A stretch of DNA of 64,000 bases from Escherichia phage JM17 (PP400779); one strand, 5' to 3'. Positions 3,197 to 24,913 are shown, counted from the first letter of the stretch. Notes: generated by a model not told the origin, from the letters alone. Translations and numbers: made by a program.

Positions 3197-3197
3197 A

Positions 3198-4036: not shown

Positions 4037-4042
4037 TATATT

Positions 4043-4466: not shown

Positions 4467-4508
4467 ATAATAATAAATAGATAAGTTAATTAACTTAGGA
4501 AAAGCAAC

Positions 4509-7192: not shown

Positions 7193-7498
7193 ATGAGTAA
7201 GATTATTGAAATTAAAGTACCAGAGTTTAATGATGCCAAATCCGCTTCAGATGCAATTTATAAACTTCTGAATCAAGCTGAACGTATCGAAGAAGAAGCA
7301 ACAAAGATCGCAGACCAATATGCCGTATCATTTTCTGTAGGTGATTATGGTAGCGGTCGTACTTATTATCCTAAGGGTGAAATCGTATCCCAGTGGATGA
7401 AAAATGAAATTGAAAATAATGGTGGCGATGTTAAGCGTGAAGGTGATGGTTACGTTATTACTGAAGGTGCTTGGGTTTCGTCTTCTGCGTTGTGCTAA
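7193..7498 (+). CDS. small protein, member 1 of tandem family ending GAWVSSSALC
   Basis: 101 aa; C-terminal G-W-V-S/A-S-S-x-x-C shared with the next two ORFs. Confidence 0.45.
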   Translation: MSKIIEIKVPEFNDAKSASDAIYKLLNQAERIEEEATKIADQYAVSFSVGDYGSGRTYYPKGEIVSQWMKNEIENNGGDVKREGDGYVITEGAWVSSSALC

Positions 7499-7507: not shown

Positions 7508-7780
7508 ATGTCTAAAGAACAAACCGAACTGGCTGAAGCTGTAGCAAAAATCTATGCAGCTATTGAGGCTGCCAAAGAAATTGCTGATAAACAAAACACA
7601 ACATTCGATTTGTACCCAGCTTATGGTATGGGTGGAACCTATCATTCACCAGGACATCTTAAAGCCGATCTTGAACGTTGTACAAAAAACGGCTATGCTG
7701 AATGGGCTGACGTTTACCAATACGACTACAACCTGAGCCTCGAAACTGGTGGTTGGGTCGCATCTTCTCACACTTGCTAA
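7508..7780 (+). CDS. small protein, member 2 of tandem family ending GGWVASSHTC
   Basis: 90 aa; AAGGAA SD; conserved C-terminal motif. Confidence 0.45.
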   Translation: MSKEQTELAEAVAKIYAAIEAAKEIADKQNTTFDLYPAYGMGGTYHSPGHLKADLERCTKNGYAEWADVYQYDYNLSLETGGWVASSHTC

Positions 7781-7789: not shown

Positions 7790-7987
7790 ATGTCTCGTGA
7801 ATTAGATTGTGCTGTACGTACGGCAGTAGCTGCCCTGGAAAACCTGTTCCAAATTGCAACAGAAGAACGCGAAGAAGTTACATTATGGATTGAAGATAAC
7901 GCAGGTCTGAATCTCCAGAACGCAATCTCATTATCAAATAATAGTATTACTGTTCAAGGCTGGGTATCATCTAGTTATTCTTGCTAA
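7790..7987 (+). CDS. small protein, member 3 of tandem family ending QGWVSSSYSC
   Basis: 65 aa; AAGGAAA SD; conserved C-terminal motif. Confidence 0.45.
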   Translation: MSRELDCAVRTAVAALENLFQIATEEREEVTLWIEDNAGLNLQNAISLSNNSITVQGWVSSSYSC

Positions 7988-8049
7988 AACAGTTTACAAC
8001 AAGATAGGGCTATGTTATAGTAGTCCTATCAAATTAAATGGAGTCCACA

Positions 8050-8289
8050 ATGATTTATTACGAAAGTATTGGAACCAAAGTGGTTGCTAAAACTATTACT
8101 CGTGAAAAGTTTGCAAAGATATTCGATATGCGTTATAAAAAATCTGAACACAAAGGCATCCGATTCGAAGATGCGCACTGTACAATTTGCCCTTATAATG
8201 AAGACATAAACGGTACAATCGTTCCATTGGTAGAAGCTTCACATGATGACCTCTGGGATGAATATAATATCGCATGTCGTGAAATTTAA
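8050..8289 (+). CDS. hypothetical protein
   Basis: ATG 8050 after GGAG (alternative ATG 8038); Cys/His pairs present. Confidence 0.35.
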   Translation: MIYYESIGTKVVAKTITREKFAKIFDMRYKKSEHKGIRFEDAHCTICPYNEDINGTIVPLVEASHDDLWDEYNIACREI

Positions 8290-8317: not shown

Positions 8318-9274
8318 ATGATGTTAGTTATTGGTTCTCGTGCACTTCACTATCACGGTCTTATTGATTCTAGCGCTATCAAAAATAGTGATTGGGACTT
8401 TATTGCGGACCAAGGTTCTTGGAATGCATTCAAAAATCAAATGATGGGTGTATATGTCCACCAAGATAACCCTGATGTCCAAGTTTTCAAATGCTTCCAT
8501 AATGGACGCGAAACTCATTTTGAAGCATATATTGTTCCGGCAATCACTAATGTCCGTGAATTAGTCGGTGAACTCACTCCTGAAGATTTCACGTCTTCTT
8601 ATGACCTTTTAAAATACGCCAAGAAAAATTTGACTAAAGACTGTTTGAACGGGTTTTACTGGGCAACTCCTGAGATATGTCTTGCAATTAAGATGTCTCA
8701 TCGTTTCAAGAAAAATAATCCATTCTTTTTAAAGACTATGAACCATATTCAGTATCTTCGTGGTAAAGGTGTTACACTGAACGATGAACTTACTGAAATT
8801 ATGCTGAAACGCCAGAAAGAAACCTTGAACTATGCTCACCCGGTTCTTGACACTTCTAAAAGTGCGTTCTTTAAAGATGACATCTATACATATGACCATG
8901 ATACTATTCATGAAGCCATTGCACTAACAGACCGTCCAGCGTATACATTTTATATGAAAGACGGTTCTGAAGTCATGACCTCACGAGAGAAGTTCGAATC
9001 GTTACCAGAAATGGTCAAATTGGCCGGTGTATATGAAGAATCATGTGTACTAGCATTAGAACGTTCTCAGATTCCTAATGACTTTAAAATTAACCCTGAA
9101 GCCAGTTTCATGATGGCATTGGAAAAGGTCTGTACAAGCATCACCTCCGGTTGGTTCCGTGAATACGCCTGGGAAAGCTACAGCAAAGTAGTAAGTATGT
9201 ACCAAAGTTTAGGACATGACGATTACGTCAAACGTTTCAAACAAAATTTCCATATGGTAAAACCTTTCAAATAA
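8318..9274 (+). CDS. hypothetical protein with nucleotidyltransferase-fold-like N-terminal motif
   Basis: 318 aa; VIGSRALHYHGL...SDWDF resembles the GS...DxD minimal NTase signature. Confidence 0.4.
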   Translation: MMLVIGSRALHYHGLIDSSAIKNSDWDFIADQGSWNAFKNQMMGVYVHQDNPDVQVFKCFHNGRETHFEAYIVPAITNVRELVGELTPEDFTSSYDLLKYAKKNLTKDCLNGFYWATPEICLAIKMSHRFKKNNPFFLKTMNHIQYLRGKGVTLNDELTEIMLKRQKETLNYAHPVLDTSKSAFFKDDIYTYDHDTIHEAIALTDRPAYTFYMKDGSEVMTSREKFESLPEMVKLAGVYEESCVLALERSQIPNDFKINPEASFMMALEKVCTSITSGWFREYAWESYSKVVSMYQSLGHDDYVKRFKQNFHMVKPFK

Positions 9275-9344
9275 TTTCGCAAAACTGTTTACACAATTAT
9301 AGGACTATGTTATAGTAGTCCTATTAAAACATGAGGAGAATATT

Positions 9345-9650
9345 ATGAAATTAGGCGAAACCAATCGAATCGGTCTTTTTACAATATTTGCATCACCTTT
9401 TTACGTAGCTCTTTCTGTTGCAGTATTACAAAAGGCTTACAGTATGGATGGTGTTCCTGGTTTTGTATTCTTATCACCGTTTTTATTATTCGTCGGAGCT
9501 TTGTTATTATATGCCACGACTAGTTTCGACCATAACGTTTGGGTTAATTATAAATGTAAATTGTCTGAAGAAGAACACGCAGAAGCTCGTAAAAAAGCTA
9601 TTGAATCTACCAATCTAGAAAATTTCATTAAAGAATGCCGAGGAAAATAA
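9345..9650 (+). CDS. small membrane protein
   Basis: two hydrophobic helices. Confidence 0.4.
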   Translation: MKLGETNRIGLFTIFASPFYVALSVAVLQKAYSMDGVPGFVFLSPFLLFVGALLLYATTSFDHNVWVNYKCKLSEEEHAEARKKAIESTNLENFIKECRGK

Positions 9651-9651
9651 T

Positions 9652-10338
9652 ATGAATAGTTCTAAAGTGTTTAATAGTCAAGCTCGTGCAGTAGGTGGTT
9701 TTGCTCATGCGATTAAAAACGACCAGATTAAAAACGAGCCTATGTTCTTTAACTGCGATTTGAATTTTGCTTTTGATAATGGCGGTCCAATTACTCGTAG
9801 CTTTATCCAAAATCTCCCTGACGATTGGAAAGACTCGGATGTAGTATTTGATTCACGAGTCCACATGCTGATGCCTGGTTGGTACCCTGCTATCCCAGGT
9901 TATCACCATGACGATGTACCACGCCCGGATATTCCGGTTGGTCAACACTTTATTACTGCAGGACAACCTGACTATGACAATCCTCGCTATTTGTCTGAAC
10001 ATATTCTTGGTCTTGTTAACGCTGATGTGTGTCCTACTCATTTTGCAACAGGAACTGCAGAGTTCAGTCAGATTCCTGATGGTGAACTTATCTATCGCCA
10101 GTGGCACAAAGAAGTCCTCGAAAAAATCGAAAAAGGCGAACTAGAGAAATGGGAAGCTCCAGATCGTACTCTTCTTCAGTTTGATTGGCAAACATGGCAC
10201 ACTGGTTCTCGTGCAATTAGTAACGGATGGCGTTGGTTCGGACGTGTATCTCGTAATACAGACCGAGTTAAAAAGATTACCAATGAAATTCGTGTCAATG
10301 CCCAAGTTTATCTGGAATTCCCTATGGAAGGCTGGTAA
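9652..10338 (+). CDS. hypothetical protein
   Basis: 228 aa; no motif recognised. Confidence 0.45.
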   Translation: MNSSKVFNSQARAVGGFAHAIKNDQIKNEPMFFNCDLNFAFDNGGPITRSFIQNLPDDWKDSDVVFDSRVHMLMPGWYPAIPGYHHDDVPRPDIPVGQHFITAGQPDYDNPRYLSEHILGLVNADVCPTHFATGTAEFSQIPDGELIYRQWHKEVLEKIEKGELEKWEAPDRTLLQFDWQTWHTGSRAISNGWRWFGRVSRNTDRVKKITNEIRVNAQVYLEFPMEGW

Positions 10339-10829
10339 TGATTAACAAAACATATTGGTCTAATATAGACGATGGCAACGAAGGTATTTCGTATTATTCA
10401 GTAGATTGGACAGGATGTCCATCCTACTTAGTGAAACATATTTGCCAAGAATTTAAAATCAACCAGCCAGCAGGTATTATCGTGAACAGATACATTAATG
10501 GATATCAACCTATCGATGAAGTAATACGAACAACTCAAGCTGAGCTTGAAAAGTTTTTCAATAAGTGCCAATGGATAACAGGATGGATTATATTTGTACC
10601 GTCAGTGTGGTTTTTTAGTACTAAAGTAAGTGCCTTTGCTATACTAGATATTATCGCTATCTTATTAGCATCTACTATCGTAAGTATAATTGGCGGTATA
10701 ATTGGTGGAGGTACTGTAGGCATCATTATTAATCTTGTTAAAAGTAGTTTACAAGAACGTAAAGACAAGATAAAGGCCAAGAATAATGAAGTTGAACGTT
10801 TTATTACCGAATGCAGGAATTTGAGATGA
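10338..10829 (+). CDS. membrane protein with glycine-zipper helix (IIGGIIGGGTVGIII)
   Basis: 163 aa; ATGA overlap with upstream ORF. Confidence 0.45.
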   Translation: MINKTYWSNIDDGNEGISYYSVDWTGCPSYLVKHICQEFKINQPAGIIVNRYINGYQPIDEVIRTTQAELEKFFNKCQWITGWIIFVPSVWFFSTKVSAFAILDIIAILLASTIVSIIGGIIGGGTVGIIINLVKSSLQERKDKIKAKNNEVERFITECRNLR

Positions 10830-11062
10830 GTATAGCAATTTACATTAAATCAGAATCATGTGATAGTTATCTGTACACATACGATAAAGATGTGTCAGAA
10901 GAAAAAATCAAAGACGATCTTAATATGGACCTTGATATGTTCTGTCCTATTGCAGATTACAAACTTGCGGTCTCTAATAGTGAAAGTCCATCTAAAGAAA
11001 CGCGCATTGAAGAATTTATATCTGAACTAATGGCCAAATCATGGGACCGAGATGATGAGTAA
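10826..11062 (+). CDS. hypothetical acidic protein
   Basis: ATGA overlap with upstream ORF. Confidence 0.4.
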   Translation: MSIAIYIKSESCDSYLYTYDKDVSEEKIKDDLNMDLDMFCPIADYKLAVSNSESPSKETRIEEFISELMAKSWDRDDE

Positions 11063-11510
11063 GAAAAATAAAGTGAAAGAACTATCAGCCGGTATTATTT
11101 TCCTTACCGAAGATAAAGAATTATTCATGGGGCGTGTAACTGGTTCTCGTCATAAAGGTGCATTAGCTCATCGGTGGGATATTCCTAAAGGCCGTGTCGA
11201 ACCTGGCGAATCTCCTATTGAAGCCGCTATTCGTGAATGCGAAGAAGAAACTGGGTTTACACAATATGACCCTGCCTTCCTGAAAGACCTAGGTGAACAT
11301 CATTACTCAGACAATAAGAATATTCATCTGTTCCTATATACCATCCCTGTAGAGCACGAGCAATTCAGAAACAGTGTTTGTAATTCCTATCATACATTCC
11401 CAGACGGACGACAGATTCCTGAATTTGATGCATTCGCTTTAATTAAACCTTCTCAATGGGAATATGTAATGGGCAAATCATTATATAAGGTGCTCACTAC
11501 CCTCCTATAA
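11052..11510 (+). CDS. nudE: Nudix hydrolase (T4 NudE-like)
   Basis: Nudix box GRVEPGESPIEAAIRECEEETG; located next to lysozyme gene e. Confidence 0.8.
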   Translation: MMSKKNKVKELSAGIIFLTEDKELFMGRVTGSRHKGALAHRWDIPKGRVEPGESPIEAAIRECEEETGFTQYDPAFLKDLGEHHYSDNKNIHLFLYTIPVEHEQFRNSVCNSYHTFPDGRQIPEFDAFALIKPSQWEYVMGKSLYKVLTTLL

Positions 11511-11512
11511 GT

Positions 11513-11544
11513 AATAAATACCTCCTATAAACGTGGGAGGTATT
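11513..11544 (+). promoter_or_regulatory. RBS-sequestering hairpin with embedded late-promoter-like AATAAATA upstream of gene e
   Basis: stem TACCTCC (11519-11525) / GGAGGTA (11536-11542) contains the SD GGAGG; ATG at 11545. Confidence 0.5.
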
Positions 11545-12033
11545 ATGAATATATTTGAAATGCTTCGTAATGACGAAGGTCTTAGACTGACTTTATACAA
11601 AGACACTGAAGGCTTTTGGACGATTGGCATAGGCCATTTGGTAACAAAGAACCCGTCTTTAGCCATAGCTAAAGCTGAACTTGACAGAATTATCGGACGT
11701 AAATGCAACGGTACAATTACCCTTGATGAGGCTGAAAAGCTATTTAATGAAGACGTTGATAAAGCCGTTCGCGGAATCTTGGGTAATGCTAAACTTAAAC
11801 CGGTATATGATTCTTTAGATGCGGTTCGTCGATGTGCATTGGTCAATATGGTCTTCCAAATGGGTGTAGCAGGCGTCGCCGGTTTTACTAATTCTCTTCG
11901 TATGCTTCAACAGAAACGTTGGGACGAAGCGGCAGTAAATCTAGCCCAATCTAAATGGTATCGTCAGACACCTAATCGCGCGAAACGCGTAATCTCAACA
12001 TTTAAAACAGGAACTTGGAAAGCGTATATATGA
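11545..12033 (+). CDS. e: lysozyme (endolysin, T4 gene e)
   Basis: [32 protein letters not shown]... near-identical to T4 lysozyme as recalled; catalytic E11/D20/T26 context present. Confidence 0.95.
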
Positions 12034-12311
12034 AAACATACAATGAATTTTTATCAGAATCTATTCTTAACGAAGCTACTGACACATTTGCAACTAAGCT
12101 AGGTGCAGCTTTGGTTGAAGCCGAAAGTCTATTAGCACGTATTTCTGAACTTGCTAGTAAGATAGATACTCGCAAATTTGAACGTACCAGCGATATCGCT
12201 AAGCTTGAAGCCTTGTTACGTATGTGCGATAAACCGGAAGAAATCGCTAAGAACGGCTCGCTGATGAAACAACGTCTTGAAAAATATATTTCAGGCGCTT
12301 CAGAAAAATAG
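12030..12311 (+). CDS. internal protein-like (leader [10 protein letters not shown])
   Basis: CTS-like N-terminus; ATGA overlap with the e stop codon. Confidence 0.5.
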
Positions 12312-12313
12312 TT

Positions 12314-12370
12314 GTTTACTTCCTCCAAGGGTTTTGATACTATACATTCATCAACTACTTGGAGGAAATT
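12314..12370 (+). promoter_or_regulatory. PeSL-like promoter: GTTTAC, TACTAT, arms TTCCTCCAAG / CTTGGAGGAA (anti-SD / SD)
   Basis: left arm lies in the promoter spacer; right arm carries the SD before ATG 12371. Confidence 0.5.
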
Positions 12371-12480
12371 ATGACCCGTCCGAAGCGTCCATTGCGATAA
12401 ATCAAGCACGCTTAGATGAAAAAATTGCTCAACGTCCGACTTGGTACAAATACTTTGGTAAATCAATTTACTAAGGAAAA

Positions 12481-12741
12481 ATGAAAATGTATCAAGAATT
12501 TATCGTTGAAGCAGATGCCAAAGGTCCTAAATTTAAAGTTAAAGCTTTCATTGGTGATGCGGAAGACTTTGGCTCATTAAAACGTAATGGGTATTCTTTC
12601 TTAGGTGGCAATGGTAAAGAAATCAACACCTATGCAAAACGTAGTGAAATTGCTTATGTTGTAGCAAGTCCTAAAGTAGATGTTGACGATATTGGATACG
12701 ATTTTAACAACTTCGGAATTATTTCTGGCGGTAAAGCTTAA
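12481..12741 (+). CDS. internal protein-like (leader MKMYQEFIVE)
   Basis: CTS-like N-terminus; AAGGAAAA SD. Confidence 0.5.
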   Translation: MKMYQEFIVEADAKGPKFKVKAFIGDAEDFGSLKRNGYSFLGGNGKEINTYAKRSEIAYVVASPKVDVDDIGYDFNNFGIISGGKA

Positions 12742-12806
12742 ATTGTTTACGCTTAAGTATTAATATGGTATATAATTACTCTATCAAAACAAACAAGGAA
12801 ACAAAA

Positions 12807-13109
12807 ATGAAAACATATCAAGAATTTATTACTGAAGCGCGAGTGAGTGCAGGTAAATTAGAAGCCGCTATAAATAAAAAGGCCCATTCATTTCATGATT
12901 TGTCCGATAAAGACCGTAAGAAACTTGTAAGCCTTTATATTGACAAAGAGCGTATTCTCGCTCTTCCTGGCGCTAATGAAGGTAAACAGGCCAAGCCTTT
13001 GAATGCTGTCGAAAAGAAAATTGATAACTTTGCTTCTAAATTCGGTATGTCTATGGATGACCTTCAGCAAGCGGCTATCGAAGCAGCTAAAGTAATTAAA
13101 GGTAAATAA
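12807..13109 (+). CDS. internal protein-like (leader MKTYQEFITE)
   Basis: CTS-like N-terminus; GTTTAC...TATAAT promoter and AAGGAAAC SD upstream. Confidence 0.55.
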   Translation: MKTYQEFITEARVSAGKLEAAINKKAHSFHDLSDKDRKKLVSLYIDKERILALPGANEGKQAKPLNAVEKKIDNFASKFGMSMDDLQQAAIEAAKVIKGK

Positions 13110-13220
13110 CAGTTTACTTCTCCTAGAATTGTGATAGTATATTCATAATTCTAGGAGGGGTAAATACAGAAATGGACAATTCATGTGCCACGGAATGGCC
13201 CAACATAAAAGAGAAACTAA

Positions 13221-13760
13221 ATGAGAACATTTTTAACTGGACCTTATCTATCCCTGATGAATGCTTTTACACACCATTCTGATGCTAGAGTAGAAGAAAT
13301 TTGTAAGAACGGTTACGTCCCACCATTTGAAGACGTACTCAAGCAGTACTGTACACTTCGTTTAGACGGCGGCAGACAATCAGGTAAATCGACCGCAGTA
13401 ACTAATTTTGCTGTTAATTGGCTGTATGATGGTGGAACAGTTATTGTTCTTTCTAATACTTCAGCTTATGCTAAAATTTCTGCTGGCAACATTAAAAAAG
13501 AATTTTCTCGTTATTCTAGCGATGATATTCGATTCCGTTTATTTACTGATTCTGTTCGTAGTTTTATTGGCAATGAAGGTTCTAAATTCCGTGGATTAAC
13601 GCTTTCTCGTATTCTGTACATAATTGACGAGCCTATTAAAGCTCCTGATATGGATAAGATTTACAATGTCCATATTAAAACAGTCCAACACTGTTGCAAA
13701 AGCAAATATTGCATCGGCGGTATTGCTCGTCCTCAATTTTTTGTGATTGGAATGCAATGA
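13221..13760 (+). CDS. P-loop NTPase, function unknown
   Basis: Walker A GGRQSGKST, Walker B-like ILYIIDEP; start uncertain because a 36-aa ORF (13172-13282) with a strong SD overlaps. Confidence 0.4.
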   Translation: MRTFLTGPYLSLMNAFTHHSDARVEEICKNGYVPPFEDVLKQYCTLRLDGGRQSGKSTAVTNFAVNWLYDGGTVIVLSNTSAYAKISAGNIKKEFSRYSSDDIRFRLFTDSVRSFIGNEGSKFRGLTLSRILYIIDEPIKAPDMDKIYNVHIKTVQHCCKSKYCIGGIARPQFFVIGMQ

Positions 13761-14065
13761 TGACCACTATTGAAGTTTTTGAGTATTGTTATAACAGCCC
13801 AGTATGCAATAAAAGGGCTCTTGTAGAAAATTATGAGATTTACCATTTTAAACCTAAACGATATCGTTTGACTAAAGGACCGTTCGCAGGGCAGCAGGTT
13901 CTTTGTACTGCTCCTAATGCACGGTTGATGACTAGTATTCCGCATTTCAAAATGGAATTTATTGATGGGCCATTTAAGGGATTAATCACTCAAAGTTTAA
14001 TGGCGTTTAATTCCGACCCATTTTTGATTAAAGAAAAAACTTGGATAAATTTATTTTCTAATTGA
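13757..14065 (+). CDS. hypothetical protein
   Basis: ATGA overlap with upstream ORF. Confidence 0.4.
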   Translation: MMTTIEVFEYCYNSPVCNKRALVENYEIYHFKPKRYRLTKGPFAGQQVLCTAPNARLMTSIPHFKMEFIDGPFKGLITQSLMAFNSDPFLIKEKTWINLFSN

Positions 14066-14071
14066 GGTTAT

Positions 14072-14434
14072 ATGAAAGCATATCAAATTCTTGAAGGTGC
14101 ACATAAAGGCACTATTTATTTTGAAGACGGTACTCAAGCCCGGATTATTGTCTCTAAGACTTTTAAAGAAGACTCTATTGTAGACCCGGAAATTTTCTAC
14201 GGTTTGAAGGCCCGTGAAATTGAAATTGAACATCAACCTAAAGTTAAAATTGAAGGTGGTCAACATCTGAACGTTAACGTTCTGCGTCGTGAAACTCTGG
14301 AAGATGCAGTTAAGCATCCGGAAAAATATCCGCAGCTGACCATCCGTGTATCTGGTTATGCAGTTCGCTTTAACTCTCTGACTCCGGAACAGCAGCGCGA
14401 CGTTATCGCTCGTACCTTTACTGAGAGTCTATAA
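14072..14434 (+). CDS. glycyl-radical cofactor protein (GrcA/YfiD-like C-terminal module) with phage-specific N-terminus
   Basis: C-terminal ~60 aa ([63 protein letters not shown]) match E. coli GrcA as recalled, glycyl radical motif RVSGY; codon usage in this segment is host-like. Confidence 0.7.
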
Positions 14435-14658
14435 TGGCTAAATTGATTATAGAAGGGTCTGAAGATGTTTTAAAATGTTTTGCCGCCTGGTTTAGTTGCT
14501 CAGGCGAGCAATCATTCACTGAAACATTTAGAATGGGTGATATTACTGGAAACTATCCGACAACTGATATCACTGTACGTGGATATGGTATTAATGAGCC
14601 TATCCAATTGGTCGAATATGACCTTGCCACTGATGAGGAAATTCCTTATGTCGATTGA
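14434..14658 (+). CDS. hypothetical protein
   Basis: TAATG overlap with upstream ORF. Confidence 0.4.
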   Translation: MAKLIIEGSEDVLKCFAAWFSCSGEQSFTETFRMGDITGNYPTTDITVRGYGINEPIQLVEYDLATDEEIPYVD

Positions 14659-14914
14659 AGACATCAAAGGCCACAAGCCGCATACCAATGATAAAATTGG
14701 TAAAGTGAACGCTATTAAAGATGCTGAAGTCCGTCTTGGATTGTTGTTTGATGCTCTGATTGAAGAAGCATATATCTTGAAAGAAAATGAAACAGAGCAA
14801 CAAACCAAAGAAGATATGGATGCAGTGCAGGCTCTTAAGTACGCTAAGCAACATCTAAAAGAAGCCAGCATGTGGGCATGTCGTGCAGTATTTCGACCTG
14901 AGGAAAAATACTAA
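14648..14914 (+). CDS. small all-alpha protein, possibly MazG/HisE-like NTP pyrophosphohydrolase
   Basis: 88 aa; acidic pattern LIEEAYIL...E..E; assignment tentative. Confidence 0.3.
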   Translation: MSIEDIKGHKPHTNDKIGKVNAIKDAEVRLGLLFDALIEEAYILKENETEQQTKEDMDAVQALKYAKQHLKEASMWACRAVFRPEEKY

Positions 14915-15129
14915 TGGCTTCTACTATTACTGGGTTATTGGACTTCCAAGAAAAGGTCAACAAAATTTGTAGTGAATACTTAAAGTATCTTGAAGAAGAC
15001 CTTGAAGATTGTAAGGAAGAAGGCGAAGAAGACTATGCTGATCAGCGTCGACGCCAAATCGAAGAGATGAGGCGTTTCGCCAATATAGTATCTAAAGAAT
15101 CTTGGGCTTTAACTCCATTTTATCAATAA
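14914..15129 (+). CDS. hypothetical acidic protein
   Basis: start overlaps upstream stop (TAATG). Confidence 0.4.
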   Translation: MASTITGLLDFQEKVNKICSEYLKYLEEDLEDCKEEGEEDYADQRRRQIEEMRRFANIVSKESWALTPFYQ

Positions 15130-15134
15130 AGTAG

Positions 15135-15190
15135 TTTACTTCTCCTCTAGTTGTGTTACTATAGACCTGTCAACTAGAGGAGAAATCAAA
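15135..15190 (+). promoter_or_regulatory. PeSL-like promoter: GTTTAC, TACTAT, 12-bp arms CTCCTCTAGTTG / CAACTAGAGGAG
   Basis: -35 at 15135-15140, -10 at 15157-15162; right arm contains the SD for ATG 15191. Confidence 0.5.
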
Positions 15191-15649
15191 ATGACTATCA
15201 ATTCAGACGTTTTTATCCGCCGTAATAAACTCCGTCGAATCTTTGAAACGGAGTTCCGCAAAATAAATGCCGGTATAAAAGATGCTGCAAAGTCTCTTGG
15301 ACTACCAGGCTTTCATATCAAGTATTCTCAACATCTCTTAGATCGTGCCATCCAGAGAGAAATAGATGAGAATTACGTTTTTGAATTATTTCATAAAGTA
15401 AAAAATCATGTTAAAGAAGTTGCAGAATTTTTATCAATGCCGGCACGTCCAGATGTTGATGAAGATTTTGTCGAAGGTGTCGAATATCGCCCAGGCCGTT
15501 TAGAAATAACTGATGGAAATCTTTGGTTAGGACTTACAGTTTGTCGCGAAAATCCAGCATTCAAAATGAAGACTCTTCAATGCAGAATGGCTATTATTAA
15601 CAGTAAACGACTACCAGGAAAAGCTTCTAAAGCAGTGATTAAAATCTAG
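15191..15649 (+). CDS. hypothetical protein
   Basis: 152 aa; no motif recognised. Confidence 0.45.
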   Translation: MTINSDVFIRRNKLRRIFETEFRKINAGIKDAAKSLGLPGFHIKYSQHLLDRAIQREIDENYVFELFHKVKNHVKEVAEFLSMPARPDVDEDFVEGVEYRPGRLEITDGNLWLGLTVCRENPAFKMKTLQCRMAIINSKRLPGKASKAVIKI

Positions 15650-15657
15650 AGGTAAAC

Positions 15658-16200
15658 ATGAGAAAAGCACTACTCGCTGGTCTATTTGCTCTTTCGTTAT
15701 CAGCATATAGCTCCGAGCATACTTTTAGTAATGTCCAACTCGATAACTTGAATTATGCTTATCAGTTCGGGGAACAGTTTTCTAAGGACGGAAAATTTAA
15801 AACGCATGAAAATATGCATAAGAAAGGACTTGGATACATAATGGCCGCAATACTATGGCAAGAATCATCTGCCGGTATTAATCTTAAAGATAAGAAAGGT
15901 CACCATGCGTATGGAATGTTCCAAAACTATCTACCAACAATGAGGGCAAGAATTAACCAGCTTGGTTATAATATGACTGATGCCCAAATTAAGAAAATGC
16001 TATCTAAGCGGTCTAATTCAGCCAGATGGGCTTATATCGAATTTTCTTATTGGTTAAATATACATAACGGGGATATAAGGAAAGCTATATCCTCATATAA
16101 TGCGGGATGGAAGACAAGTGCTGGAAGTAAATATGCTTCTGAAGTCCTAGAAAAGGCTAATTACCTTAAATCAAATAAACTACTGGAAATAAAAGAATGA
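15658..16200 (+). CDS. secreted lytic transglycosylase-like (SLT domain) protein
   Basis: signal peptide MRKALLAGLFALSLSAYS; SLT-like motifs ILWQESS, YGMFQ, SSYNAGW. Confidence 0.5.
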   Translation: MRKALLAGLFALSLSAYSSEHTFSNVQLDNLNYAYQFGEQFSKDGKFKTHENMHKKGLGYIMAAILWQESSAGINLKDKKGHHAYGMFQNYLPTMRARINQLGYNMTDAQIKKMLSKRSNSARWAYIEFSYWLNIHNGDIRKAISSYNAGWKTSAGSKYASEVLEKANYLKSNKLLEIKE

Positions 16201-16544
16201 CCAAAATGTTGGCTTTAATAGTTGGCTTGGTTTCATTTAACGCTCTTGCTAATACTACATATACTGATGTAACGGAGTATACAAACAGAACGGCGTCTGA
16301 TTATTGTGGTAAAAGTCGAGAGTGTAAAGTAGATTTTTCACAAAAATTGTTATATGCGTATAAAGACGGAGAAAAAGATGGGGCGTCTAGTAGGTTCAAG
16401 GCGTCTACTTTAATTAAAAGATACTATAAAAAATGGCAAATATTAGAATGCTCGGTGGCGGAACCTAAAGATAAGGCAGCATGCAATTCTATGGTGGACC
16501 GTCTAGTTGACTCTTATACTAGAGGACTTGCAGCAAGTGATTAA
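16197..16544 (+). CDS. secreted/periplasmic small protein
   Basis: signal peptide MTKMLALIVGLVSFNALA. Confidence 0.4.
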   Translation: MTKMLALIVGLVSFNALANTTYTDVTEYTNRTASDYCGKSRECKVDFSQKLLYAYKDGEKDGASSRFKASTLIKRYYKKWQILECSVAEPKDKAACNSMVDRLVDSYTRGLAASD

Positions 16545-17001
16545 AAACTATATCAAGGGCGATATTGTCGCCCTGTTTTCTAAAGGTAATAATATTGCTC
16601 ATGGGTGTAATTGTTTTCATACAATGGGCGCCGGTGTGGCAGGACAATTAGCAAAGGCTTATCCAAAAATTCTGGAAGCCGATAAACTTCAAACCGAATT
16701 CGGAGACGAGTCTAAACTCGGGACTTATTCGGTTTATGAAAAATATTTTAAGACCCATAAAGCTTATTGCTTTAATCTTTATACGCAGTTTGAGCCGGGA
16801 CCTAATTTTGAGTACTCTGCTTTAATGAATTGTATAATAGAATTAAATGAATTCGGAAAGAATAAGATAATAAAGCCTGTAATTTATATGCCAAGAATTG
16901 GTGCAGGTATTGGTGGTGGAAACTGGGATGTCATCGAAGAGATTTTAGATACATATTCCACTAAACTAGAAATTGTGATTGTTGATTGGGAACCTAAATG
17001 A
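16507..17001 (+). CDS. macro-domain protein (ADP-ribose binding / putative ADP-ribosyl hydrolase)
   Basis: GDIVALFSKGNNIAHGCNCFHTMGAGVAGQLAKAYP and IGAGIGGGNWDVI resemble macro-domain motifs; start uncertain (overlaps upstream ORF). Confidence 0.5.
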   Translation: MTLILEDLQQVIKNYIKGDIVALFSKGNNIAHGCNCFHTMGAGVAGQLAKAYPKILEADKLQTEFGDESKLGTYSVYEKYFKTHKAYCFNLYTQFEPGPNFEYSALMNCIIELNEFGKNKIIKPVIYMPRIGAGIGGGNWDVIEEILDTYSTKLEIVIVDWEPK

Positions 17002-17180
17002 AATTAACTAAAGAAGAGAAAGCTAAACTGTTCGAACTTATCCATGACCTATTGGATGAACAAGCAGCCACCAATGCGTATGATGAATATGCTCCTTTGA
17101 CAGACGAAGAATATCACGCATTGATGGAATCATTTGACAGGAAAGAACAAGAACTCATTGACTATGTGAATTCACTATAA
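16998..17180 (+). CDS. hypothetical acidic protein
   Basis: ATGA overlap. Confidence 0.4.
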   Translation: MKLTKEEKAKLFELIHDLLDEQAATNAYDEYAPLTDEEYHALMESFDRKEQELIDYVNSL

Positions 17181-17189
17181 GGGACTCTT

Positions 17190-17771
17190 ATGGCTAGTTT
17201 AATTTTTACCTATGCCGCTATGAACGCTGGTAAGTCTGCTTCATTACTTACTGCTGCACATAACTATAAAGAGCGTGGCATGGGTGTATTAGTTCTTAAA
17301 CCGGCTATTGATACTCGCGATTCAAAAGGTGAAATAGTCTCTCGTATTGGTATTCGTCAGGATGCCAATATAATTACAAAAGACATGGATATCTTTGAAT
17401 TTTATAAATGGGCTGCAGCACAAAAGGATATTCATTGTGTATTTGTTGACGAAGCTCAGTTCTTAACTACTGAAAAGGTGTATCAACTTAGTCGTATTGT
17501 TGACGTGTACAATGTGCCGGTAATGGCATATGGACTACGAACAGATTTTAAAGGTAATCTATTTGAAGGTTCTCAAGCATTAATGGCTATTGCCGATAAG
17601 CTTGTTGAACTTAAAGGTGTCTGTCATTGTGGTAAAAAGGCCACAATGGTAGCTAGAGTCACGGAAGACGGACTTCCAATTACAGATGGCAGTCAAATTG
17701 AAATTGGTGATACCGATAGATATGTGTCATTATGCCGGAAGCATTGGAATGATTTGACAGGGTTGTTATAA
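17190..17771 (+). CDS. tk: thymidine kinase
   Basis: P-loop FTYAAMNAGKSASLL; C-terminal CHCGKKA...LCRKH zinc ribbon; 193 aa. Confidence 0.9.
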   Translation: MASLIFTYAAMNAGKSASLLTAAHNYKERGMGVLVLKPAIDTRDSKGEIVSRIGIRQDANIITKDMDIFEFYKWAAAQKDIHCVFVDEAQFLTTEKVYQLSRIVDVYNVPVMAYGLRTDFKGNLFEGSQALMAIADKLVELKGVCHCGKKATMVARVTEDGLPITDGSQIEIGDTDRYVSLCRKHWNDLTGLL

Positions 17772-17798
17772 ATACTAATATCTAACCAAGAGGTATAT

Positions 17799-18011
17799 AT
17801 GCAGCAATTAAACGAAAGACAACTTCGTAATCTTACTGTAACCCAATTAGATGAAATCCGAAGAGAATTAGGACATTCTATTTCTCATTTAAACGAGGAT
17901 ATCCGTCAAACTGGTTCTAAAGCTGATTATACACGCAAACGCAAGCTGGAAAAATACCTCACAGATGTTAAGGCCGTCCAAAGGCGAAAAATAAATACTG
18001 GCCAAAATTAA
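17799..18011 (+). CDS. hypothetical basic protein
   Basis: ORF with SD AAGAGG. Confidence 0.4.
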
Positions 18012-18023
18012 CAGGAGGCCTAT

Positions 18024-18326
18024 ATGGCCTTAAGAGCGATAGCTGTCATAGCGATGCTGGGGTTTTTTGCAGCAACAACTCCTATCGTTGGTACTGCACA
18101 TATCGACCCATATTTTGATAACTTTATGGAATCAGGGATTAAAAACGTATATACTTTGTTTGAAATTCAAAATGTTGAGAATTCTGAAAAATTCTATAAG
18201 TATATGGCAAAGCATTACAAAAATAGCCCCTGTGATGATGCATTTGAATGTCATGAACAAGGCGTAAAAACTGCCAGACAATTTGCTGAGTTCATGAAAA
18301 TAAAATTAGAGCCTACATCTATCTAA
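18024..18326 (+). CDS. secreted small protein
   Basis: N-terminal signal-like hydrophobic segment. Confidence 0.4.
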   Translation: MALRAIAVIAMLGFFAATTPIVGTAHIDPYFDNFMESGIKNVYTLFEIQNVENSEKFYKYMAKHYKNSPCDDAFECHEQGVKTARQFAEFMKIKLEPTSI

Positions 18327-18332
18327 TTTACT

Positions 18333-18363
18333 AGCCCCTTCCTTATGGTTGGGGCTTTTTGGC
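18333..18363 (+). terminator. rho-independent terminator, copy 3
   Basis: same hairpin as 4436 and 4980. Confidence 0.6.
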
Positions 18364-18427
18364 ATCTATCAGTTTACTTCTCCTCAGGTTGTGTTATAGT
18401 AGTCCTTACTTACTAGAGGAGAACGTT

Positions 18428-18607
18428 ATGACACGTAAAGAAAAGATTTCTAAGTTGATGTTTTTGATTGAAGAGTATGCTAATTCTGTATCCGATTGGG
18501 AAAATGCTCATGGTTGCGAAGATGGAGACATCGACATTAACAGAGCTATGAAAAAGATGGCCGACGCCCACACCGAATTGCAAATGTATGTTAACGAGAT
18601 TATGTGA
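18428..18607 (+). CDS. small hypothetical protein
   Basis: ATG 18428 after AGAGGAGAA within a PeSL-like element. Confidence 0.35.
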   Translation: MTRKEKISKLMFLIEEYANSVSDWENAHGCEDGDIDINRAMKKMADAHTELQMYVNEIM

Positions 18608-18614
18608 GGATATT

Positions 18615-18821
18615 ATGCTTTACGATTATACTGGAAAATCTGAAGACGGTGTACTTGAACTTTTACCTGAAAGCGCTGAAGATGATGATATGGTGGTGAT
18701 GTTTTGTAAAAATGGTCCTGGGGATAATGGATGGATTTATCTTCGCCAAGAAAATGACCTAATTGTTTTGGACCCAAAACAAGTTGAAGAACTTTATCAA
18801 CATTTAAAACACAATCGGTAG
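18615..18821 (+). CDS. small hypothetical protein
   Basis: ATG 18615 after GAGGA. Confidence 0.35.
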   Translation: MLYDYTGKSEDGVLELLPESAEDDDMVVMFCKNGPGDNGWIYLRQENDLIVLDPKQVEELYQHLKHNR

Positions 18822-18985
18822 TTTACATCTTGGTAGGACTATGTTATAGTAGTCCTATCAAAACAAACGGAGAACAAAATGAAACTTTTGCTTATCGCTT
18901 ATGTTGTAGTACAATACAATTATCCGATGTTTACCTATAACATGGTAAACGGCATAGTGAATCTTATTGAAACGAGTATGGTAAA

Positions 18986-19165
18986 ATGACCCGTGAACAA
19001 GCTAATAAATTGATGGACCTTATCCGTGACTTACGTGAAGCTGATTCAGATTTGAATGACGTAGCTTATCATGCGGTAAATGATAACGGAGATTTTTATG
19101 AAAATCAGGTTGACGCTTGCCAGAATGCTTTGGTGAATTTTGTTGAAACTTTAATTGGTGAATAA
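18986..19165 (+). CDS. small hypothetical acidic protein (59 aa)
   Basis: not in track (under 60 aa); ORF found by hand. Confidence 0.3.
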   Translation: MTREQANKLMDLIRDLREADSDLNDVAYHAVNDNGDFYENQVDACQNALVNFVETLIGE

Positions 19166-19166
19166 T

Positions 19167-19700
19167 ATGAAAACTGTAATTGAAACAACCGAGTTGTTCG
19201 GTGATTTATGTATCGAAAAACGTGGTTATGTGTATGTTCTGACACAAGAAGATGATGCTGCTACTATTCTTCCTATGGAACTGGATAAGATTTTGAAACT
19301 CAATCCGTCTGGACGTCGTCGAGAGGTAATTAACATTGATGAAGACCTTCAAGTTCGTTTTTATCATGGACTTTATAGTGGGGTTAATATCGAAACCGAA
19401 GATGAATGTTTTTCTATTAATAATTGGAAAACATTTGTCACTAAGGTGAAAGAATTCATGGAATCTGAAACAGCCAAAAAGGCCAAACTTCAATGGGCTA
19501 AATGCCGTAATGCTTTTATTACAAATCAGGACCGCCCTGACTATACAACAGTCCTGGGAGTTAATCCTTCTTATGAAGACGGTGATGTCGTAGTTATTCG
19601 TCAAATTGATGACCTTCGTCAACATATCATTACATTAGACAAAGATGAAGCAGTTGCTCTTAAAGCTTATCTTGATTCTATTATCCCGACTTTGAAATAA
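19167..19700 (+). CDS. hypothetical protein
   Basis: 177 aa. Confidence 0.45.
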   Translation: MKTVIETTELFGDLCIEKRGYVYVLTQEDDAATILPMELDKILKLNPSGRRREVINIDEDLQVRFYHGLYSGVNIETEDECFSINNWKTFVTKVKEFMESETAKKAKLQWAKCRNAFITNQDRPDYTTVLGVNPSYEDGDVVVIRQIDDLRQHIITLDKDEAVALKAYLDSIIPTLK

Positions 19701-19709
19701 GGAATTATT

Positions 19710-20183
19710 ATGATTATCAATGAAAACTCTTGGCATTTTAAAATTTATGCCGCATTCAATAGTACATGGAATCGTCCGAAAACGTTGTGTGCTTATTTTT
19801 GGAAAACGTTAATCCCGGTATTGGCTGTTTCAATTATTGGATTTGCGATTTTAGCAGCAGTCACAATCATTGGCCAGGAAATTTTAACTAAATTCTTTGT
19901 TTTTAGCAGTCTATGGACATTAGTTCCAGCCTCAATCGGTGTAGGCATTTTAATGGTAGCAGTCATGGCTTTTATTGCTACCGGGTTGGTAATTGGTCCT
20001 TCCTGGTTGTTAGACAAATATAACGACAGAAAATATTATAAAGAAATTGAGCTCATTGCACAAAACCAAGAACGAATTAAAAATGGACTTGAGCCTATTG
20101 AACGTAAGAAATCATTAATAGGTGAATACCTTAAAGCTCGTAAAGAAAAAGTCTGTCCTACTCTTGAATATAAGGCTAAATGA
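19710..20183 (+). CDS. membrane protein
   Basis: three hydrophobic helices. Confidence 0.45.
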   Translation: MIINENSWHFKIYAAFNSTWNRPKTLCAYFWKTLIPVLAVSIIGFAILAAVTIIGQEILTKFFVFSSLWTLVPASIGVGILMVAVMAFIATGLVIGPSWLLDKYNDRKYYKEIELIAQNQERIKNGLEPIERKKSLIGEYLKARKEKVCPTLEYKAK

Positions 20184-21169
20184 TGAAAACAATTATGAAA
20201 GGCTACTTTGGTAGCCACCTTTATGGAACGTCTACTCCTGAATCTGACGTCGATTTTAAAGAAATTTATGTCCCTCATGCTCGTGATATCTTGACCGGTA
20301 ACGTTAAAGAACACATGAGCAAGAACACGAATAACACTGCTTCTAAGAACACAAAAGACGACGTAGACCATGAGTTGTATAGTCTCAAATATTTCTTTAA
20401 ACTAGCTGCAGATGGTGAAACCGTCGCATTAGATATGCTTCACACTCCACCGAGTCTAGTAGTTAAATCTGATTTGCCTGATGTATGGAAGTATATTCAA
20501 GATAACAGGTCTCGTTTCTATACCACTAACATGAAATCTTATTTAGGGTATGTCCGTAAGCAAGCTTCTAAATACAGTGTCAAGGGTTCTCGTCTGGCTG
20601 TTCTCCGCCAAGCCCTTAAACGTTCTAATGAATGGGGACAATACTTTGATAACGGTGCAGTAATTCGTTTATCACATATGAAGAATGTTCTGCCTGTAGG
20701 TGAATTTGCTTCGTGGGTTGAAACCGAAAACGAGAAAACAGGTAAGCAAACATTCTATAATCTGTTAGACCGTAAATTCCAAGATACGTTAACCAATAAA
20801 GAGTTCAATGCCATCCTGGTTAAACTGGAAGAGAACTATGGTGAACGTGCTCGTAAGGCAGAAGCTAACGAAGGTATTGACTGGAAAGCATTGAGTCATG
20901 CATGTCGTGGTGGACTTCAACTACTGGAAATTTACAAAACCAGCGACCTGGTTTACCCACTTCAGGACGCTCCATTTATTCTTGATGTTAAGCTTGGTAA
21001 ACATACGTTTAAAACTGTACAAGAATTCCTAGAAGATATCGTTGACCAAGTTGAACAAGCATCAGAACAAGCCGCTAAGAACGGTATGCAACAAAAAGTA
21101 GATATGAGTTTCTGGGATGACTTCCTTGAACAAGTCTATCTCGAAAATCATAATTCTTACTATAAATAA
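20180..21169 (+). CDS. nucleotidyltransferase-fold protein (Pol-beta-like NTase motif)
   Basis: 329 aa; GSHLYGTSTPESDVDF equals the GS-x(9-13)-DxD NTase signature. Confidence 0.5.
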   Translation: MMKTIMKGYFGSHLYGTSTPESDVDFKEIYVPHARDILTGNVKEHMSKNTNNTASKNTKDDVDHELYSLKYFFKLAADGETVALDMLHTPPSLVVKSDLPDVWKYIQDNRSRFYTTNMKSYLGYVRKQASKYSVKGSRLAVLRQALKRSNEWGQYFDNGAVIRLSHMKNVLPVGEFASWVETENEKTGKQTFYNLLDRKFQDTLTNKEFNAILVKLEENYGERARKAEANEGIDWKALSHACRGGLQLLEIYKTSDLVYPLQDAPFILDVKLGKHTFKTVQEFLEDIVDQVEQASEQAAKNGMQQKVDMSFWDDFLEQVYLENHNSYYK

Positions 21170-21794: not shown

Positions 21795-21863
21795 TTGTTT
21801 ACTTTTGCTTTAAACATGTTATTATAGACCTATCGAAACGAAATGAGTAAATTGGAGAATAAA

Positions 21864-22844
21864 ATGTTCAACGTTCAAATCAAAAAAGGTATCTACCGTA
21901 ATAACGAAATCTCTGGTTCTTATGTTGCCACAAAGACCTGGTTCCCGGCAAAGCTTAATCCTGAATGTTCCCACTTAGGTGATGGTAAAATTTTCGTTAT
22001 GATTGATGGTTCTGAACGTGGAGTATGGGTCTTCAAATCAGACATCGTAATGGAAGGAGTTGAGACATCACCGGTTGCAGTTGTTGAAAGCACCGAAGAT
22101 ATGAAAACTCGTATCAACAAACGCTTTAAAGTAATGAACATGATGACGAATGGCATTATCGATGGCAAAATTCGTTCACTCATTATTTCAGGTGCAGCTG
22201 GTATTGGTAAGACGTATTCTCTGGATAAAGCACTTAATAATGCTAATGATAATGGTTTCATCAAATACAAAAGCATTAATGGTAAAATCTCTGGTATTGG
22301 CCTTTACGAACAACTTTGGCTCAACCGTGATGCAGACAGCGTTCTCTTAATCGACGACGTTGACGTATTCTCAGATATGGACATCTTGAACCTTCTTAAA
22401 GCAGCATTAGATACCGGAGATAAACGCAAAGTTTGTTGGAGCACTGCGTCATCTTATCTCGATGATAAGGGTATTGATAAAGAATTTGAGTTTGAAGGTA
22501 CTATCGTTTTCATTACAAACGTTGATATCGATAAAGAGTTAGAACGCGGTTCGAAACTTGCTCCACACCTTCAAGCTTTAGTATCTCGTTCAGTGTATCT
22601 CGACCTTGGAGTACACTCTAATGAAGAGATTATGGTTCGAGTTGAAGATGTAATATTATCTACTGACATGATGCAGAAACGTGGTCTGACGGATGCAGAA
22701 ACGTATAAAGCATTGTCCTGGATGAAGGCTAATGTATCTCGTCTTCGCAATGTATCATTACGTACCGCTCTTTATGTAGCAGATTTTATTTCAACTGATA
22801 AAGATGGTTGGGAGGAAATCTCTGAAGTAACTTTACTGAAATAA
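21864..22844 (+). CDS. AAA+ / P-loop ATPase
   Basis: Walker A ISGAAGIGKT, Walker B VLLIDDVD; alternative start 21843. Confidence 0.5.
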   Translation: MFNVQIKKGIYRNNEISGSYVATKTWFPAKLNPECSHLGDGKIFVMIDGSERGVWVFKSDIVMEGVETSPVAVVESTEDMKTRINKRFKVMNMMTNGIIDGKIRSLIISGAAGIGKTYSLDKALNNANDNGFIKYKSINGKISGIGLYEQLWLNRDADSVLLIDDVDVFSDMDILNLLKAALDTGDKRKVCWSTASSYLDDKGIDKEFEFEGTIVFITNVDIDKELERGSKLAPHLQALVSRSVYLDLGVHSNEEIMVRVEDVILSTDMMQKRGLTDAETYKALSWMKANVSRLRNVSLRTALYVADFISTDKDGWEEISEVTLLK

Positions 22845-23917: not shown

Positions 23918-24913
23918 ATGAGCATTACATCTGATGCGGTAAAACATGAAATTAACGGTTTATGTGCTTCACAGATTAAAGTGTGGTTTAAAGACCATAA
24001 TGATCGCAGAGCACTTAATTATGAGCAAATTGCTATCCAAGTTCATCAATTACTGGTTAGTAAATTTGATTTTCATATGCCGTCTGAAATCTATACTAAT
24101 CTGCCGCGAGCACTTATTAAAGCGTGTAAAGGTTACGGAAAATCAATGGCTGATGGAATCTTCAGCGCGCTGAATAAACTTAACGTTCTGTCGATGATTA
24201 ACTCTAACAACATCCTGCGTAATCTAGGACGTACTGATTTGTTCGGCCGTGAACAGGGTAAAATGCCTTTGAAATGGATTGTTGCTCATCTTAACGAGAA
24301 CCAAACACGTTTTATGGCCGTAACAGCACGTTTACAAATGGGCCTAGATCGTCAGATGAACTTTAAAACTCATCCATGTTATTCAGGTTCAACAAACTTT
24401 TATAAATGTGAGCTTCAAAAGGTCGGTGGCAAAACTGTCTTAGTAGTTCGTGTAACGTTTGAAGGACGACGTCAAGGATATTTTGACATAATCGGCTCTG
24501 GCCTTAAACATTGTGGATTTATCGACGAAGTTGATATCAAGCGAGACGGCATTGGATACCGTATTGGATATGTTTGTACTCTTAAAGAAGAGATTTCAGG
24601 ACCAGCACCAGGACTAAAAGACGTTAGATATAAAGACGAGCTCGTTGAAGAAATAAAAGAAGTTGAATATGATATCAACCAAGAAGATGCTCTTAAAGAC
24701 CTTATTGATGAACTGAATCAAGACGTTATTCCGGTTCAGAAATTTGAATCAAAACATGCTGAGCAAATCAAATACTTTGAAGCTTTGATTAACGAACTTA
24801 ATGTAACTATTCAACAGACTGACGATGAAATCTCACGATTAGCAGGCTTAAACGGTAAAAATAAAACAGAACGAGCTAATCTTATTCAAGTAGTAAAACT
24901 TCTTAAGGAATGA
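23918..24913 (+). CDS. hypothetical protein with coiled-coil C-terminus
   Basis: 331 aa. Confidence 0.45.
   Translation: MSITSDAVKHEINGLCASQIKVWFKDHNDRRALNYEQIAIQVHQLLVSKFDFHMPSEIYTNLPRALIKACKGYGKSMADGIFSALNKLNVLSMINSNNILRNLGRTDLFGREQGKMPLKWIVAHLNENQTRFMAVTARLQMGLDRQMNFKTHPCYSGSTNFYKCELQKVGGKTVLVVRVTFEGRRQGYFDIIGSGLKHCGFIDEVDIKRDGIGYRIGYVCTLKEEISGPAPGLKDVRYKDELVEEIKEVEYDINQEDALKDLIDELNQDVIPVQKFESKHAEQIKYFEALINELNVTIQQTDDEISRLAGLNGKNKTERANLIQVVKLLKE

Follow-up and report, generated by a model that had tools for sequence, protein, structure and literature searches.

Two nucleotidyltransferase genes in the early region of phage JM17

We analyzed a stretch of 64,000 nucleotides from Escherichia phage JM17 (PP400779), referred to here as the window, and concentrated on two nucleotidyltransferase (NTase) genes, ORF1 and ORF2 (ORF, open reading frame), and on a family of small Cys-terminated proteins encoded beside ORF1. 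The window covers the early-gene region of a T4-like (Mosigvirus-type) phage, with nearly all genes on the + strand; homologues of dNMP kinase, Acb1 (57B), NudE, lysozyme e, RegB, Tk, and NrdD/G, among others, were recognized in it. A reading made from the sequence alone (the sequence-only reading) had proposed that ORF1 and ORF2 encode two unrelated-looking proteins of about 320 amino acids (aa) that carry the Pol-beta NTase signature. Both genes are present at the positions it gave and at close to that size (ORF1, 8318-9274, 318 aa; ORF2, 20180-21169, 329 aa), as are the two strings it quoted: GSRALHYHGL...SDWDF corresponds to ORF1 residues 6-28 and GSHLYGTSTPESDVDF to ORF2 residues 11-26. 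The nearest records to both are Mosigvirus phages, with protein identities of 97-99%. Both are conserved genes: tblastn matches came from 733 phage records for ORF1 and from 1543 for ORF2. The features of the two loci are as follows.

7193..7498, + strand: small acidic protein 1, 101 aa, phrog_899; C-terminus ...GAWVSSSALC-COOH and a DYGSGRTYYP motif
7508..7780, + strand: small acidic protein 2, 90 aa, phrog_899; N-terminal amphipathic helix, YGMGG, and C-terminus ...GGWVASSHTC-COOH
7790..7987, + strand: small protein 3, 65 aa, phrog_4882; C-terminus ...QGWVSSSYSC-COOH
7993..8021, + strand: promoter-like TTTACA-17-TATAGT with a TG extension (consensus match only)
8038..8289, + strand: 83-aa ORF, phrog_3723, between the small proteins and ORF1 (sequence/PHROG match)
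8318..9274, + strand: ORF1, 318 aa, MenT1-like Pol-beta NTase core followed by a DUF7275 helical domain
8321..8620, + strand: ORF1 residues 2-101, Pfam DUF7277, the NTase beta-sheet core with hGS, DxD, and third carboxylate (E = 1e-27)
8675..9232, + strand: ORF1 residues 120-305, Pfam DUF7275, the most conserved part
9288..9316, + strand: second promoter-like TTTACA-17-TATAGT, directly past the ORF1 stop; hexamer pair identical to that at 7993..8021
20180..21169, + strand: ORF2, 329 aa, T4 NrdC.11 orthologue of the RlaP family
20198..20587, + strand: ORF2 residues 7-136, the stretch matching Pfam RlaP (PF10127; 48.0 bits, cut-off 23, E = 1.7e-12)

Both proteins have the elements that define the Pol-beta NTase fold, namely an alpha/beta NTase core that contains an hG[GS] turn, a [DE]h[DE]h in the strand following this turn, and a third carboxylate in a strand further along. 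AlphaFold2 gave confident models (predicted local distance difference test, pLDDT, of 90.2 for ORF1 and 90.8 for ORF2) with an NTase fold and not another one, and the top structural matches of both models were all Pol-beta-type NTases. The catalytic acidic residues are kept in the alignments, which held 145 ORF1 representatives at 50% identity and 61 ORF2 sequences (the latter reaching 24-45% identity, and seeded from a 30%-identical Pseudoalteromonas phage protein). The proposed signature is thus borne out in both proteins. So is their dissimilarity: BLASTP between ORF1 and ORF2 gave E = 6, and hhalign gave a probability of 2.7% with the DxD strand alone aligned.

No database that we checked annotates ORF1 as an NTase. 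It is assigned to DUF7277, DUF7275, and phrog_2141, all of unknown function, and appears as "hypothetical protein" in every annotated record inspected. The predicted active site comprises G6 (140/140), S7 (138/140), D25 (D in 137 and E in 2), D27 (140/140), E69 as third carboxylate (E in 126 and D in 15 of 141), and K125 (144/145, inside K[ML]SHR[FY]xK), each of which is conserved in at least 94% of the representatives.

Two independent methods returned MenT1 (PDB 8an4) as the best structural match to ORF1. Foldseek ranked it first with a probability of 1.00 over 184 alignment columns, in a chain of 195 residues. MenT/AbiEii (DUF1814) proteins, MenT1 in particular, share with ORF1 the GS, the DxD, the third carboxylate, and perhaps a Lys in a following helix (K125 in ORF1, compare K137 in MenT1): K125 is reminiscent of the DUF1814 motif-IV lysine. 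Sequence searches gave little. Pfam AbiEii (PF08843) was unmatched by ORF1 and was hit by one of the 145 representatives (E = 0.021), while a few family members weakly matched the NTase families DUF4269, DUF6036, and AbiEii. Nothing meaningful was found among all PDB sequences with ORF1, ORF2, the ORF1 family profile, or a profile of the small proteins; NCBIfam yielded sub-threshold noise only, and no PADLOC defense model matched either NTase. We regard ORF1 as a predicted active NTase with a MenT-like core, and not as a DUF1814 member at the sequence level. The sequence-only reading had also allowed for interference with host nucleotide signaling. This was not supported by the PADLOC searches, nor by the structures, which showed no special likeness to cGAS/CD-NTase-type enzymes over other NTases.

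The C-terminal two thirds of ORF1 are far more conserved than the NTase core. Eleven positions are invariant in 145/145 representatives (F137, K139, H194, D195, H198, E240, E241, E248, R249, G278, and R281), and the DUF7275 motifs read K[ML]SHR[FY]xK, YDHDxIH, GVxEExxVLALER, and KVCTSITSGWFR. Past about residue 185 we found no structural relative in the PDB, and no HD, zincin, or other fold could be assigned. At 50% identity the family falls into 1224 clusters, and it is found almost solely in phages: a search of 185,579 prokaryotic species genomes found only eight loci, all in metagenome-assembled genomes. Our searches of the literature turned up nothing relevant on DUF7275, DUF7277, phrog_2141, phrog_899, YGMGG, or the pairing of an NTase with ribosomally synthesized and post-translationally modified peptides (RiPPs) in phages.

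Small Cys-terminated proteins encoded upstream of ORF1

A comparison of the neighborhoods of 16 diverse ORF1 homologues revealed an upstream family of small proteins, to which the products of 7193-7498 and 7508-7780 belong. The counterpart of 7193-7498 is annotated as a hypothetical coding sequence in the close relative MK373778. Members begin with an amphipathic helix (..AExIADExGLxF..), often carry YGMGG or DYGxGxTYYP, continue through a variable acidic linker, and finish with G-x-W-x-[S/A/P]-S-S-x-x-Cys-COOH at the extreme C-terminus. This W-x-S-S-S-x-x-C tail is the most conserved feature, above the helix; the family is otherwise very diverse and is united only by its Cys-terminated, serine-rich end. 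Of the 186 small proteins detected, 185 end in Cys, and the median isoelectric point is 4.4. All six codons for Ser, both for Cys, and all three stops occur in the tails, so that what selection conserves is the protein sequence. No Pfam family covers these proteins, and their PHROG families, phrog_899 and phrog_4882, are both of unknown function. The protein encoded at 7508-7780 was found by tblastn in 280 phage records, and the genera listed also appear among the ORF1 matches.

The linkage was measured on 80 IMG/VR loci around ORF1 homologues and 80 control loci around ORF2 homologues, many of them on the same contigs. An ORF with the strict tail was present in 71/80 ORF1 loci and in 0/80 control loci, which contained 9,698 ORFs (Fisher p = 1.4e-35); a phmmer match to the small proteins was present in 73/80 and 0/80, respectively. 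Several loci negative for the strict tail carry relaxed versions of it (WSSSNLNC, WVQSSC, and WESSESSEC). Where they occur, the small proteins number from one to six paralogues per locus. Of 144 strict-tail ORFs, 143 precede the enzyme gene and share its strand. Within the window the tail occurs in 3 of 533 ORFs, all three directly upstream of ORF1.

After dereplication the linkage was kept in 22 of 27 enzyme clusters at 70% identity. The small-protein family was the only neighbor shared across lineages (23/27 clusters), with any other real gene family reaching at most seven. The linkage was seen in Pseudomonas Otagovirus, in E. coli Phapecoctavirus, in Acinetobacter and Stenotrophomonas phages, and in unrelated metagenomic contigs. 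O157 typing phage 6, a Mosigvirus without ORF1, also lacks the small genes, and the syntenic region of T4 has neither. In the annotated neighborhoods of distant ORF1 homologues, which consist of hypothetical genes, only the small proteins were recurrent, together with a loose proximity to tRNA genes. ORF1 encodes the only enzyme of this conserved cassette, whose remaining genes are for the small Cys-terminated proteins. This linkage points to a protein or peptide as substrate or partner, and not to free nucleotides.

A particularly large array is on IMG/VR contig 3300044693_000036, where five tandem Cys-terminated small genes (413-1901) stand directly before an ORF1 homologue (start 1917) and a sixth lies downstream of it (3128-3421). 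Their tails are WMSSSDQC, WTNSSTYC, WKNSSSYC, WYSSHC, WEGSAC, and WQPSAGTC.

The two promoter-like sites resemble T4 early promoters and bracket a unit made of ORF 8038-8289 and ORF1. Going by the match to consensus, the site at 7993-8021 would drive these two genes and the site at 9288-9316 would mark the start of the next transcription unit. ORF 8038-8289 formed no cross-lineage cluster in the neighborhood comparisons and is therefore lineage-specific, outside the widely conserved cassette. Just downstream of ORF1, a 228-aa protein (9652-10338, + strand; phrog_1843, without a Pfam match) is probably independent of the cassette as well, because the Mosigvirus in which ORF1 and the small genes are missing still has it.

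In JM17 a tRNA-Met(CAT) and a tRNA-Arg(TCT) gene are encoded about 4 kb upstream of ORF1 (3963-4119, + strand). In Gordonia phage Cucurbita and Stenotrophomonas phage Mendera, too, only a few kb or less separate the ORF1 homologue from tRNA genes, a proximity that may be coincidental.

What is new here is the fold of the ORF1 family, its predicted active site, and a strongly supported family of small-protein partners. Two sets of phage proteins of unknown function, phrog_2141 on one side and phrog_899 with phrog_4882 on the other, become one enzyme-partner hypothesis.

Candidate functions of ORF1 and ORF2

By sequence and gene order, ORF2 is the Mosigvirus orthologue of NrdC.11 and an ordinary RlaP-family member, already known in kind. 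It is 77% identical to T4 nrdC.11 over its full length, occupies the syntenic position between mobD/y05I-type genes and an NrdC.10-type ATPase, and matches phrog_388 ("nucleotidyltransferase") at 1e-124; its match to Pfam RlaP is above the curated cut-off and spans profile positions 23-144 of 249 only. In the ORF2 family (n = 61), G11, S12, D23, and D25 are invariant, and E65 and D85 are at least 90% conserved. In the model the NTase domain comes first and is followed by a long C-terminal domain of helices, with a small beta-meander at residues 177-201 in the C-terminal half. The homologue is mis-annotated as "thioredoxin" in Pseudoalteromonas phage J2-1 and in many Mosigvirus records.

For ORF2 the label of unknown function given by the sequence-only reading no longer stands (PMC12776372; PMC7824862). 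A December 2025 preprint placed T4 NrdC.11 in the RlaP similarity network, in which the T4-type proteins make up their own cluster 5 (PMC12776372). The same authors showed that PfRlaP and PaRlaP from Pseudomonas add 1-2 nucleoside monophosphates (NMPs) to RNA 3'-OH ends, preferring a mimic of cleaved tRNA, with Mn2+ as the best metal and without using DNA or protein; these enzymes improved the aminoacylation of a tRNA ligated after losing a nucleotide (PMC12776372). Comparative genomics had predicted that RlaP restores nucleotides before ligation, alongside RNA ligases (PMC7824862). ORF2 resembles the RlaP family in its GS, its DxD, the further acidic residues, and, going by the model, apparently in the order of an NTase domain followed by a C-terminal helical domain; the beta-meander is a point of difference. 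Homology suggests that ORF2 probably extends 3'-OH ends of broken RNA by 1-2 NMP, with Mn2+ as the probable metal. In this way it would likely replace nucleotides that tRNA has lost to nuclease damage, ahead of religation by phage Pnk/Rnl1, and ORF2 is then one more orthologue of a family now being characterized.

RB69, the type Mosigvirus, encodes both Pnk/Rnl1 partners (pseT and rnlA), elsewhere in the genome than its ORF2 homologue. The genes that recur in the 80 ORF2 loci are tk, rI, y05I, and the NrdC.10 ATPase, a pattern of T4-type synteny, and no RNA ligase or Pnk was recognized among them by eye, no family search having been made. In J2-1 (2662-4921) the ORF2 homologue is immediately downstream of a gene for a CCA-adding tRNA nucleotidyltransferase, an adjacency suggestive of a tRNA-repair pairing. 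In JM17 the T4 nrdC.10 position, judged by gene order, is taken by a 333-aa P-loop/AAA-type protein (21843-22844, + strand; phrog_1250) with sub-threshold AAA/STAND Pfam matches only, and a similar gene is found just downstream in 38 of the 80 ORF2 loci.

For ORF1 we propose that the small-protein tail is the substrate. DUF7275 would dock the tail of a small protein into the NTase cleft, and the enzyme would then use a nucleoside triphosphate (NTP) to attach an NMP to a tail serine hydroxyl, or else a phosphate, a transfer of which MenT enzymes are capable. The product would be modified effector or carrier proteins early in infection. More speculatively, the modification might be followed by elimination and by formation of a thioether with the terminal Cys. 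We infer the tail as substrate, the chemistry, and the biological role alike, and hold this proposal tentatively, at somewhat less than an even chance.

Pol-beta NTases commonly nucleotidylate protein hydroxyls, as in GlnE, GlnD, DrrA, MntA acting on HepT, and HalB, which primes itself on Tyr. The chemistry proposed for ORF1, a nucleotidyl-type group passing from a triphosphate to a protein hydroxyl, is the same as theirs, by analogy only. We favor the tail as substrate because one enzyme gene pairs with many paralogous partners, because what is conserved in these partners is, in essence, just a terminal peptide rich in hydroxyls, because Pol-beta NTases often act in this way on proteins, and because MenT1 can phosphorylate a threonine, its own Thr39 (PMC11375011).

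Two other kinds of system offer partial parallels. CitX and MdcG act on a small acidic carrier protein encoded nearby, attaching a prosthetic group to one of its Ser residues. The likeness is a chemical analogy only, and hhalign of the ORF1 family against E. coli CitX gave no support for kinship (0.3% probability). None of these enzymes, nor any of the protein-modifying Pol-beta NTases, has a DUF7275 domain, and their substrates lack the W-x-S-S-S-x-x-C-COOH tail. Ser-x-x-Cys-COOH cores, with the same spacing as the small-protein tail, are the sites of AviCys (aminovinyl-cysteine)/lanthionine formation in epidermin-type lanthipeptides, and RiPP systems are reminiscent of the cassette in combining one modifying enzyme gene with one to several tandem precursor-like genes. 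Here, however, the arrangement is the opposite of the typical one, in that the "core" tail is conserved and the rest of the small protein varies; no protease or exporter gene is linked to the cassette. LanB, LanC, LanM, LanKC, and LanD domains were absent from the Pfam matches of the ORF1 family, and no such genes were recurrent in the neighborhoods.

Taken as a whole, the reading is that the two ORFs are genuine Pol-beta NTases of two families with two jobs, RNA 3'-end repair for ORF2 and modification of small-protein tails for ORF1, and we judge it evenly balanced between right and wrong. Several points weigh against it. The MenT toxins, which are the nearest structural relatives of ORF1, act on tRNA 3' ends and not on proteins, and MenT1 is controlled by an upstream-encoded small protein, MenA1, so the phage small proteins could be regulators. 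Position 143 of ORF1, an Asp in 135/145 representatives and a His in the JM17 protein, may correspond to a residue needed for MenT1 toxicity; in MenT1 the catalytic motif-IV lysine (K137) is followed by an Asp, D152. About 3-5 of the 80 loci have no small gene within 6 kb even under the relaxed tail search, and several distant homologues, among them those of Brevibacillus phage Sundance, Gordonia phage Cucurbita, and Vibrio phage PVA23, are likewise without one. As for ORF2, its RlaP match takes in only the NTase half of the model, the ORF2-type gene is not adjacent to an RNA ligase in T4-like genomes, and RlaP activity is known from PfRlaP and PaRlaP only, so that its extension to T4-type proteins goes by sequence kinship.

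The chief alternative for ORF1 is that it acts as MenT1 does, putting nucleotides onto tRNA 3' ends, with the effect of shutting down or retuning host translation or of mending or altering the ends, while the small proteins are regulators or antitoxins of the MenA1 kind that use their N-terminal helix to bind the enzyme and restrain it. MenA1 is a 68-aa protein encoded upstream of menT1, with an N-terminal helix as its active part (PMC10435456; PMC11375011). The phage proteins are likewise encoded upstream and have a conserved N-terminal amphipathic helix, and phage tRNA genes are often no more than a few kb away from ORF1-type genes. It would be unusual, however, for a single enzyme to have as many as six paralogous antitoxins, and in the small proteins it is the tail, not the helix, that dominates conservation; they are multi-copy, acidic, and defined by the Cys-terminated end, show no sequence similarity to MenA1, and their profile retrieved neither a MenA1 chain nor any other PDB chain. 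The enzymes differ too. ORF1 is phage-restricted, stands outside a toxin-antitoxin context with no AbiEi-type gene nearby in the loci inspected, and escapes the AbiEii model. MenT1 lacks its extremely conserved C-terminal extension of about 130 residues, and at the position of the MenT autophosphorylation site, two residues before D25, a Ser/Thr is not conserved in ORF1, about half of the family having Pro there. We consider this alternative unlikely. An ORF1 acting on small molecules, as ANT(2'') or LnuA do, and inactivating an antiphage metabolite, an antibiotic, or a nucleotide-derived immune signal (the idea of the sequence-only reading), is a good deal less probable again, since it leaves the near-obligate linkage to Cys-terminated proteins unexplained; ORF1 matched no PADLOC or Pfam resistance family, and its alignments to ANT/Lnu proteins span the generic NTase core only.

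The linkage itself might be inherited synteny without functional coupling, and many of the 80 ORF1 loci are indeed from related T4-like phages in which gene order is kept by descent. Against this, it holds in 22-23 of the 27 enzyme clusters, including contigs whose other neighbors differ, no other gene family is common to more than seven clusters, and enzyme and small genes were lost together in O157 typing phage 6 and are both absent from the T4 region. We therefore give synteny alone the slimmest chance of the explanations considered. Hardly better placed is the idea that ORF2 is a HalB-like maker of oligodeoxyadenylates or other oligonucleotides, for example one that keeps a Hailong-type channel closed as counter-defense. 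HalB is a defense NTase paired with the HalA channel, whereas the sequence of ORF2 belongs with RlaP above the Pfam cut-off and matched no PADLOC model; DNA acceptors, moreover, are not used by the characterized RlaPs. No PfRlaP chain turned up in either PDB library searched, so HalB may be no more than the closest relative of RlaP with a solved structure.

With the tail as substrate, ORF1 and the small proteins would form an undescribed, phage-specific post-translational modification system (Ser-O-nucleotidylation or phosphorylation of tails), with a wide distribution among the large virulent phages of many bacterial phyla, and yielding modified effectors, carriers, or peptide-derived products. 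We put this forward as possible, with the doubt slightly outweighing the confidence. If the tails do prove to be modified, a toxin-type NTase scaffold would here serve a kind of protein or peptide modification chemistry that is new among viruses; relevance to host takeover or counter-defense could follow, and the enzyme would possibly be useful for tagging.

Other genes of the window

A homologue of Acb1 (anti-CBASS phosphodiesterase, T4 57B) is encoded at 1772-2227 on the + strand (Pfam Acb1, E = 1.3e-58); the records of T4 and O157 typing phage 6 wrongly call this gene "RNA ligase". Two ORFs of about 320-330 aa at 23918-24913 and 24971-25924 (+ strand), without a Pfam match at E <= 0.01, fall by gene order in the T4 nrdC.3-nrdC.5 region. 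The macro-domain protein at 16507-17001 (+ strand), equivalent to T4 Tk.4, matches Pfam Macro (E = 1.9e-6) and, weakly, the PADLOC DarG model (1.3e-9), and could be an ADP-ribose-removing counter-defense enzyme.

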